A stretch of 64,000 bases of DNA from Octopus vulgaris (Eukaryota): assembly GCA_951406725.2 (NCBI GenBank), contig OX597823.1, forward strand, positions 57,412,001 through 57,476,000, given 5' to 3'. A model generated the notes under the pieces. It made no database searches, had not been told where the DNA came from, and worked only from the letters and a program-made list of their open reading frames with translations. Shown here piece by piece: positions 13,281-15,287 of the stretch (within the stretch, counting starts at the first letter, position 1; every line of letters begins with the position of its first letter). Position numbers and translations under genes: made by a program.

Positions 13281-13299
13281 ATAATAATAATAATAATAA

Positions 13300-13635
13300 A
13301 TCGACCCCAGGACTTATTTTTAGACTCTGGTACTTATTTTATCGGTCTCTTTTGCTGAACCGCTAATCTATAGTGGCATAAATATACCGGTTTTCAAGAG
13401 GTGGTAGGGGACAAACACAACACACACACGCACGCCCCCTCCACACACACACACACCCCACACATACACGCACGCACCCACACATACATACACATGTCGG
13501 GTTTCTCTCATTTTCCGTCTACCAAATCCACTCACTTGGCTTTGGTCGGCTCGAGGTTACAGTAGAAGACACTTACCATAGGTACCACGCCGTAGGACTG
13601 AACCCGGAACCAGGTGGTTAAGAAAGGAGCTTCTT
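13300..13635 (-). mobile_element. Family B (CORE-like) SINE, body and 3' part; its 5' head lies at 15251-15287
   Basis: Minus strand: AAGAAGCTCC..AACCACCTGGTTCCGGGTTCAGTCC..GTAAGTGTCTTCTACTGT..AGTGAGTGGATTTGGTAGACGG, colinear with the full-length copies at 19336 and 63341. Confidence 0.88.
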
Positions 13636-15250
13636 TTATTCATTAAATTGGTCATAAAGGTCTTACAAAGAAAGGAAGCTGCGGGCTGGACAAGGACATA
13701 ATGAGATGAAATGATAGACGATATGATAATAATGAGGGCAACAGCAAAGCCCGCCGATTGCTGGTTACTCGAGTACATTGTTCTTTAAAAGTACCATATT
13801 TGAGGCAACAAACCTCTTACATAGTTCAAAGTAAAACATCAATGAGGTAATAAGCCTCTTACATTTACAACAAGAAAGCCATTGTGAGGCAGTAAACCTC
13901 TTACACACGTCAATTATAAAATCAATAAAACAATACAAATGAGGCACCACGCCTCTTGCTTTAATTAATTACAAATCTTCCTGCCCGACTAGCCTTCTCC
14001 CCTTGGTCAAACACCTGGACGGTGTCAAGTCAGGCCGATTTAATACAAAATTATAAGTGTCCGCTGGGAAGGAGTTCATTATCCTGCACAGATCAGTTTC
14101 CCATATGACCTCCGCAGCCACCTGCGAAGGCCAGTAGGGTCCTCCGTGCAGGACAGAATCCCCTCCATTCGCCCTTCCTTTCACACTTCTTAATGAAGTT
14201 TTCTATTATCCCTCCCTTATGGAAGATGACCATAAACTCCTCCTCCACAGCATGGGAGGGATCTACAGTTTCCACCTTCAGTTGCACAAACCTCACCGAA
14301 GTTACTTCGGGACACGCCGGCAGTGTATCACAAACCGCCGGCAAAGTCCCGTTTTTCTTTTTTTCCTTTTTTCCGCTGAGACACGGGAGGGTGGTGTTCC
14401 TTCCTTTTGTCTAGCAGATCCTACCTTCCTCCCGCAACCTTCAGATCCTTCGGTGGGCAGCCATTGTTGCCCACCTTTCGTTTTTTCCTTTTTTCGAGTA
14501 GTTCCACCTCCTTGACTTCCTCCTTCTCTCCTTCCAATGAGAGAGCAGGGAGCGGTATCAATATCAACTGCTCTAGGACCTTATTTTGGTCCTTAGGGCA
14601 GTTCTTTTTGATATGACCCAGTTCCAGGCACAGGCGACACTTGGTGGGGGGAGCCTCTCATGCATCACCGGATACCTAGACCTGGCCATTATTAAAAAAT
14701 CTGGAAATACCAGATTTTTGGCTGATTGGGTCCATATGGTCAAAACACCATTTGATCCCTCCCAATCAACTGCAGGCAGAATGTTCCCGTTTAGGAGCTT
14801 GGTACTGTTGCCACCCAGACCCCGGCGGATAGTATCCTCTATCCACTCGGGCTCAATTCCGGGTGGCAAACCGCGGGCCCAAGCCATCGTCAACTTCTTT
14901 CCACAATAAGTTTGAAGAAACAAATTTTTTTTGCTTTCTTTGAAGTTATTAAAATAAAAAATCCCACGAAATTAAACAGGAACAGTTCTCCCAAATAATC
15001 GAGAATAACACAATTCTCAAATTAAATTGGAGGCGGGATAAGCCTCCAAACGGCAATTCTCACAATTAAGTGAGAAAAGCAAAATGCTCTACTGCAGGTA
15101 GACCAACGCCCAGAATCTAGTGAGGACTCCTTGTTTGTACAAAAAATAATTATCACAAACAACGAGCCCCACTGGACCCAAAAAGCAAAAACTCTTACCT
15201 TACAGTAGAGCCTCTACAGGTGAGTGAAGAAAACTAAACGACCGGAACCG
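13636..15250 (-). mobile_element. ORF1-only (Gag-like CCHC) non-autonomous non-LTR retroposon inserted in a SINE head, 14-bp TSD
   Basis: Frameshifted ORF ~14930-13969: LQTYCGKKLTMAWARGLPPGIEPEWIEDTI..., zinc knuckle CRLCLELGHIKKNC (14598-14639), basic/acidic linker and C-terminal region ending RLVGQEDL*; ~330-nt 3' UTR ending in AATAAA; no RT or EN motifs; TSD GAAAGGAGCTTCTT (13622-13635) / GAAGCGAGCTTCTT (15251-15264), 12/14 identical. Confidence 0.82.
13801..13958 (-). repeat. Array of four GAGGY-N5-RCCUC stem-loops in the 3' UTR of the ORF1-only element
   Basis: Minus strand: AAGAGGC-GUGGU-GCCUCA, UAAGAGGU-UUACU-GCCUCA, UAAGAGGC-UUAUU-ACCUCA, UAAGAGGU-UUGUU-GCCUCA, spaced about 42-55 nt with unrelated spacers. 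Confidence 0.85.
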
Positions 15251-15287
15251 GAAGCGAGCTTCTTACCACACAAACGCTCCAGCGCCT
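15251..15287 (-). mobile_element. 5' head of the interrupted family B SINE
   Basis: Minus strand GGCGCTGGAGCGTTTGTGTGGTAAGAAGCTCGCTTC versus the intact head GGCATAGGAGTGGCTGTGTGGTAAGTAGCTTG at 19336. Confidence 0.85.

Follow-up and report, generated by a model that had tools for sequence, protein, structure and literature searches.

How does an element that encodes neither an endonuclease nor a reverse transcriptase come to lie within the head of a SINE, flanked by a TSD and ending at a defined base? This question is raised by a locus in the genome of Octopus vulgaris, where a 1,615-bp insert on the minus strand (15250–13636) of the window, i.e., the whole 64,000-nucleotide stretch of contig OX597823.1 that was analysed, interrupts a SINE. 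The initial annotation, which was made from the sequence, regarded the insert as a HAL1-like or bipartite retroposon that uses the SINE as a site-specific landing pad. The reading that we favour, and hold to be highly probable, is that the insert is a decayed ORF1-only retroposon, likely copied by TPRT via the ORF2 of a LINE of the L1/Tx1 group that uses the same site. In this report, we describe the insert and its family, the probable partner LINE, and a 3'-UTR motif that may contribute to the choice of target.

Anatomy and decay of the insert

Along the minus strand, the locus consists of SINE head, TSD, insert, TSD and SINE body, and the coordinates given earlier for the split SINE were right. 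The 5' portion of the head of the host SINE (15265–15286), recognized from its sequence and from the identical flank that precedes many relatives, contains a decayed A-box-like motif at 15276–15266 and is followed by the 5' copy of the 14-bp TSD, AAGAAGCTCGCTTC (15251–15264). The 3' copy, AAGAAGCTCCTTTC (13622–13635), leads into the remainder of the SINE (13298–13621), which has a B-box-like motif at 13604–13594. The duplication is present at both ends, although its two copies are identical at only 12 of 14 positions; the target of the family is AAGAAGCTTGCTTC. The A- and B-box-like motifs of the host SINE are 32 nt apart, and each agrees at 10 of 11 positions with the box consensus. The label 'tRNA-derived' for the SINE rests on these motifs; an empty young SINE head gave no match to tRNA in Rfam, and Rfam returned nothing relevant for the sequences tried.

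Within the insert, the 5' UTR of the element (14960–15250) lacks about 50 nt near 15216–15225, and it ends at a private deletion site (14932–14960), at which approximately 460–495 nt have been lost: the last part of the 5' UTR, together with the start codon and the first ~85 codons. No unbroken match across this gap was found in any of the other 39 scored candidates. Both junctions are real, as previously described, but the copy between them is not whole, and the insert is an old decayed copy with private internal deletions. The frameshifted ORF1 remnant (13969–14935) retains the end of a first RRM, a second RRM, a CCHC knuckle (near 14640–14595), a basic linker and a C-terminal domain, these domains being named from intact relatives. 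The decayed ORF had been called Gag-like: its frames with TYCGK/GLPPGIEPEW and with CX2CX4HX4C are both present and frameshifted, but the likeness to Gag is limited to the knuckle, as the predicted order of domains in ORF1 is RRM-RRM-CCHC. The zf-CCHC match of the window frames in Pfam has an E-value of 0.0022 and falls below the curated cut-off, and no reverse transcriptase or endonuclease family matched in the five minus-strand frames scanned, in agreement with what had been noted.

The 3' UTR contains four degenerate repeats spaced 42–55 nt apart (13801–13968), a motif, AGCTTCC, at 13674–13680, whose complementarity to the A-type target (GAAGCT) is evident from the sequence and from the covariation described below, and a terminal hairpin of 4 bp with a 5-nt loop (13650–13662), which is common to the partner LINE. 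As to the structured 3' UTR of the initial annotation, the terminal hairpin is conserved in the family but has decayed in the window copy. The terminal AATAAA (13635–13640) exists but does not lie wholly inside the insert, since it crosses the 3' junction and its final A is base 1 of the TSD. The sequence also confirms that there is no poly(A).

An ORF1-only family and other users of one SINE site

Queries from which SINE sequence was excluded were used to examine site specificity. When only the insert was used as a DNA query against its own genome, 71 matches were obtained from the 40 candidates scored out of 2,616, and of 30 loci from this search, the window included, 26 have kept the 3' end, with the SINE site next to it in 24 of the 26. 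A protein search with a near-intact ORF gave 115 scored matches; here the 3' end was found in 26 of 30 loci and is followed by the target in 25 of the 26. An exact 19-mer spanning the 3' junction occurs 52 times and a degenerate junction pattern 794 times, while the backwards-pattern control gave 0 in each case, so these counts are not due to chance. Full-length copies measure 1.85–2.44 kb between their TSDs and contain a single ORF of about 392–414 aa; random flanks and an ORF2 ahead of the 3' UTR, which would have pointed to an ordinary LINE, were looked for, and the full-length copies hold one ORF and no ORF2. In addition, 5'-truncated inserts of 39–1,637 bp, among them two of just 39 and 72 bp in the 30 loci taken from the exact 19-mer matches, are preceded by the SINE head and flanked by perfect 14-bp TSDs. 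The family lacks a poly(A) tail, forms tandem stacks at the site, and is represented by its younger subfamilies at a T-variant of the site. The TSD, the variable 5' truncation and the fixed 3' end are hallmarks of TPRT, and independent copies occur at the identical SINE site, in the same orientation and with TSDs, as expected of the proposed landing pad.

Private target bases are present in both TSD copies at three loci (L223, L322, L325), and the 14 bp were therefore duplicated from the target; many truncated copies have shorter duplications of 6–11 bp. Since each insertion rebuilds the target, stacks can form. Position 4 of the TSD is identical between the 5' and 3' copies in nearly all genuine pairs, after many false 5' junctions had been set aside by eye, and thus sites appear to be chosen and not overwritten, L352 excepted. 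Overwriting of the 3' TSD by RNA is accordingly unsupported, apart from that locus. At four loci (L051, L054, L200, L201), an inverted upstream flank directly follows the 5' TSD, which would fit a single-stranded top-strand overhang that folded on its own palindrome and primed itself. In some full-length subfamilies, independent copies have the last bases of the 5' TSD in common, which suggests that their RNA may start inside the TSD. These junctions bear on the notion of a composite retroposon in which the insert travels as a unit with the head and tail of the SINE. Almost all copies do have SINE flanks, but private target bases are duplicated, the site is common to LINEs and several families, and truncated inserts of many lengths retain the SINE head and TSD; such copies with an intact upstream head contradict the notion, which we regard as very improbable.

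The site is also occupied by two more ORF1-only families (L264/L271/L272/L288 and L268/L275) of about 1.3–1.5 kb with 14-bp TSDs, the element of L264 lying at ~152–1538 in the oriented locus. Their 3' hairpin is as in the main family, their ORF1 is different (about 25% identical), and they have no antisense motif. The site has also received a second SINE (L183–L212), which has a LINE-like 3' tail and again lacks the motif; it accounts for 354 pattern matches, a minority of its copies being in a register 4 nt upstream. These tails were considered as LINE copies and rejected as such: the second SINE was recognized in 29 of the 30 loci examined, the remaining one being a very short insert, and an ORF2 search on loci with LINE-like tails gave no match.

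Rebuilding of the ORF had been proposed as a check on the nature of the encoded protein. Pfam recovered zf-CCHC only, both in the window frames and in intact ORF1s, and no L1 ORF1 family; the RRM-RRM part comes from the fold of relatives. The N-terminal ~200 aa, which are followed by the knuckle, were predicted with a pLDDT of 87.4 when folded as a domain with a deeper alignment (the full ORF1 reached 39). The best structural matches of this fold are tandem-RRM proteins, at TM-scores of only 0.3–0.4, which are low because the orientation of the domains differs, and the predicted structure indicates that ORF1 is a protein of two RRMs and a CCHC knuckle. Its N-terminal region has dN/dS values of 0.11–0.23 in 26 of 28 pairs between subfamilies, with dS up to ~2, the remainder being one close pair at 0.54 and one saturated pair; the C-terminal part has values of 0.29–0.58. 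These ratios show that ORF1 has been under purifying selection. The protein is homologous to the ORF1 of octopus APE-RT LINEs (E 8e-32), and in the ORF1 tree it forms a long branch separate from the ORF1s of all APE-RT LINEs, the partner included, which argues for an old independent ORF1-only lineage. On this evidence, the family is a separate old lineage and no recent deletion product of the partner LINE. That the window insert arose from an ordinary LINE by a single internal deletion is practically untenable: internally deleted or chimeric LINEs do occur at the site (L342, L346, L348), but the 794 junctions, the purifying selection on several subfamilies whose ORFs are intact, and the distance of the ORF1 clade from the partner's ORF1 already contradict it.

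The sole database relative found for ORF1 is a protein of Octopus sinensis, and a weak search for longer or fused relatives found none. As leads only, the neighbours of ORF1 in the ESM Atlas are molluscan CCHC and ZCCHC3-like proteins (0.87–0.90), and, judged by its features there, the ORF1 of L075 is similar to ZCCHC3-like proteins of vertebrates (0.87–0.89). ZCCHC3 is reportedly a suppressor of L1.

HAL1 (half-L1) of mammals is described in PMC5753468 as a non-autonomous LINE derivative that encodes ORF1p only and forms a lineage of its own. The octopus family likewise has an ORF1 and no ORF2, and is a non-autonomous independent lineage instead of a one-off deletion. Compared with HAL1 as described there, however, it has an RRM-RRM-CCHC ORF1, no poly(A), a strict target and tandem stacks, and with no Pfam L1 ORF1 family it gives no sign of an L1-type ORF1p or of mammalian L1 origin. 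Hence the element works like HAL1, as had been suggested, but does not belong to the mammalian HAL1 family.

A probable partner LINE

The search for an RT-encoding partner, also suggested by the initial annotation, led to a likely candidate, a 5.4-kb LINE with endonuclease and reverse transcriptase, whose site, TSD and 3' end are those of the ORF1-only elements. Full LINEs of this kind occur within tandem arrays formed there: in L180, ORF1 and ORF2 lie between perfect 14-bp TSDs, and in L167 the ORF2 frame of 1,140 aa is intact. The domains of ORF2 are Exo_endo_phos, RVT_1 and zf-RVT. In the PDB, its nearest relative is human L1 ORF2 (E 7.6e-66, against 8e-22 for R2), which places the LINE in the L1 group rather than with R2; no full Tx1 ORF2 was among these hits, and the RT relatives listed included no labelled Tx1 references. 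The combination of ORF1 with an ORF2 bearing APE, RT and a C-terminal zinc motif is that of Tx1 elements. The 30 LINE copies most similar in ORF2 all terminate at the SINE site, with the short hairpin and a final AATA, and so exceed the >20% of flanks by which PMC4494074 recognizes a target preference. Other zf-RVT LINE families served as a control and ended at the site in 1 of 30 cases; the top families among them were therefore rejected as partners. LINE and ORF1-only elements also stand in common arrays (L167, L171, L180). The target common to both, like the anatomy of the insert, is shown directly by the copies. From the shared site, TSD and 3' end, we strongly infer that the ORF1-only elements are mobilised in trans by the partner's ORF2.

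An older LINE lineage with decayed copies (L289–L300) occupies A-type sites and is the likely partner of the subfamily to which the window insert belongs. Among full-length A-type candidates, L339 is decayed and has an inverted 5' part, L347 is truncated, and no intact full-length partner was found.

Tx1-clade elements provide the closest setting: according to PMC4494074, Tx1L targets Tx1D, Keno targets U2, and Tx1-Mar, together with SINEU-3, targets Mariner-N4_AMi. As in the cases described there, an APE LINE and its non-autonomous dependants have a common target within a different repeat, a TSD lies between tandem copies, and truncated copies represent independent insertions; the partner LINE thus fits the Tx1-type target-specific LINEs. 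In the octopus system, by contrast, the insertions go into a SINE head, the dependants code for a protein (ORF1 only), and a UTR motif covaries with the target variants, no such motif being described in the available parts of PMC4494074.

Several other arrangements were observed. A head-to-tail array of at least five near-identical 5.4-kb LINEs, some with intact ORF2, is present at L121–L123 (G000:C2:73040000-73069999). The internally deleted or chimeric LINE copies L342, L346 and L348 have intact ends at the site and show a possible route to new ORF1-only or bipartite derivatives. At L124:6261-7915, an ORF1-only element stands in tandem behind a LINE that is not targeted to the SINE; thus, half-element dependants exist for other LINE families here too. 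Finally, the element at L169:1442-7131, from a LINE family not targeted to the SINE, begins with about 640 nt of the 5' end of an ORF1-only element and terminates at the SINE target, possibly as a template-switch chimera.

A 3'-UTR motif complementary to the target

The 3' UTRs of both the LINE and the ORF1-only elements contain a motif, AGCT[T/A]C(TT), that is the reverse complement of the target AAG[A/T]AGCT. It is complementary to target bases 1–9, with a match of 8–9/9 in the LINE, and lies ~35 nt from the 3' end in the ORF1-only elements and ~70 nt from it in the LINE, on opposite sides of a common TGTCC block, a placement that suggests separate origin or relocation. Its fifth base covaries with the SINE variant that was hit. 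In the LINE, with a parse that tolerated up to four mismatches, all 68 distinct junctions agree (12 with motif T and target A, 56 with motif A and target T, 0 discordant); the 15 of 83 loci dropped were 8 duplicates, 6 without a parsed end, two of which (L231 and L252) do terminate in the SINE, and 1 without a hit. Among the first 100 of the 794 ORF1-only junctions, counted by hand with tandem members included, 94 agree (21 T/A and 73 A/T, with 6 other). As the copies are related, the counts for both reflect few independent switches. The genome holds 22,495 exact A-type and 113,063 exact T-type target sites as 16-mers, i.e., 16.6% are A-type, and elements with a T-type motif lie in A sites at 1 of 77 non-tandem junctions (p 1.4e-5), the single case being a parse artefact. 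In the ORF1 DNA tree, T-type copies form two or three clades apart from old A-type copies, and in the LINE tree A-type copies are nested among T-type ones. How often the motif switched is nevertheless uncertain from these trees, which were both rooted at the midpoint and are probably affected by recombination. The A-type SINEs have the greater age (12.8%, n = 7, against 5.0%, n = 30, for T-type SINEs), and the presence of old copies in A sites is therefore explicable by age alone.

There are also clear counter-examples. The L321–L323 subfamily has a T-type motif, predicted to self-pair, yet all three copies seen are in A-type sites; motif and target are discordant at L283, L319 and L320 as well, and a different base of the motif is mismatched in five LINE copies. 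Moreover, the motif is not required for the site, because the two further ORF1-only families and the second SINE use it without the motif.

In the proposed mechanism, the ORF1p of the ORF1-only element would package its own RNA, and the partner's ORF2p would bind the common 3' hairpin in trans and nick the bottom strand at GGT^AAG; cleavage of the top strand would take place up to 14 nt downstream, producing the TSD and a rebuilt target for stacking. Given that AATAAA crosses the junction, transcription would continue into the TSD downstream of the element. This read-through would form a stem with the UTR motif and would also base-pair with the nicked strand of the target, in which case each lineage should favour SINE copies that match its master's own. 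Pairing between motif and TSD is predicted at 0.56–0.97 in 10 of 11 folded motif-bearing copies. We consider these read-through, stem and annealing steps, with their motif-based preference for the matching SINE variant, somewhat more probable than their negation, and weaker than the trans-mobilisation itself. The endonuclease probably sets the site, and RNA would at most tune the variant.

A bolder proposal is that LINE and ORF1-only parasite use the antisense UTR motif as a short RNA guide or strand-exchange arm, retuned by one base upon a change in the host SINE, such that RNA partly programs the target of an APE retrotransposon; we put this forward tentatively and think it rather doubtful. 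A related and still less probable version would have the motif pair with the target DNA itself, on its top strand, freeing the nicked bottom strand to prime, with read-through optional. The motif has the sequence of the predicted primer strand, it is 8–9/9 complementary in the LINE, it stands on opposite sides of TGTCC in the two elements, and the agreement at TSD position 4 accords with such pairing. However, motif-less elements reach the identical site, and this pairing is inseparable from the read-through stem by sequence alone.

Targeting by the endonuclease only, with the motif either pairing with the flank in an RNA stem that aids stability or processing of the 3' end, or being a passenger that tracks lineage age, is also a rather unlikely explanation in our judgement. 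The endonucleases of Tx1L, TRAS1 and R1Bm are described in PMC1919474 as reading about 10 bp unaided, motif-less families are equally site-specific, the independent switches are few, and the T bias of young copies could be explained by endonuclease drift. Nevertheless, a pure passenger is not expected to track the target base in LINE and ORF1-only lineages alike, and an 8/8 match arises in 0.2% of shuffled LINE UTRs, while the UTRs of control LINEs (20 of 30 parsed) match at 6/8 at most. We regard RNA-assisted target choice, in the read-through form preferred here, as a testable hypothesis.

For R1Bm and SART1Bm, which are likewise site-specific APE LINEs, PMC7265360 and PMC1919474 propose that target-like RNA anneals to the nicked bottom strand, and in R1Bm downstream target sequence is needed for accurate priming; a similar annealing of RNA and target is proposed for the octopus LINE. 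In the accounts of these sources, the RNA motif is in target sense, whereas in octopus it has the antisense orientation relative to the top strand and is located 30–70 nt inside the 3' end. Full-text searches of the literature returned no covarying antisense UTR motif and no SINE-targeted ORF1-only elements of octopus. The available text on L1-Tx1 families in PMC13282606 does not contain the words 'target', 'nested' or 'HAL1', and its supplements or Repbase may already hold the families.

Taken together, the octopus elements form a three-level parasite nest, in which a SINE serves as a safe landing site for a LINE and several dependent families. One of these keeps its own RNA-binding protein under selection, and thereby offers a live model for the retention of ORF1 in HAL1-like elements. 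The single-base covariation of UTR and target is a natural experiment on the shares of RNA and endonuclease in the target choice of LINEs. Since young intact copies of both the LINE and the ORF1-only elements exist, the system is open to direct tests and is relevant to tools for site-specific gene insertion.
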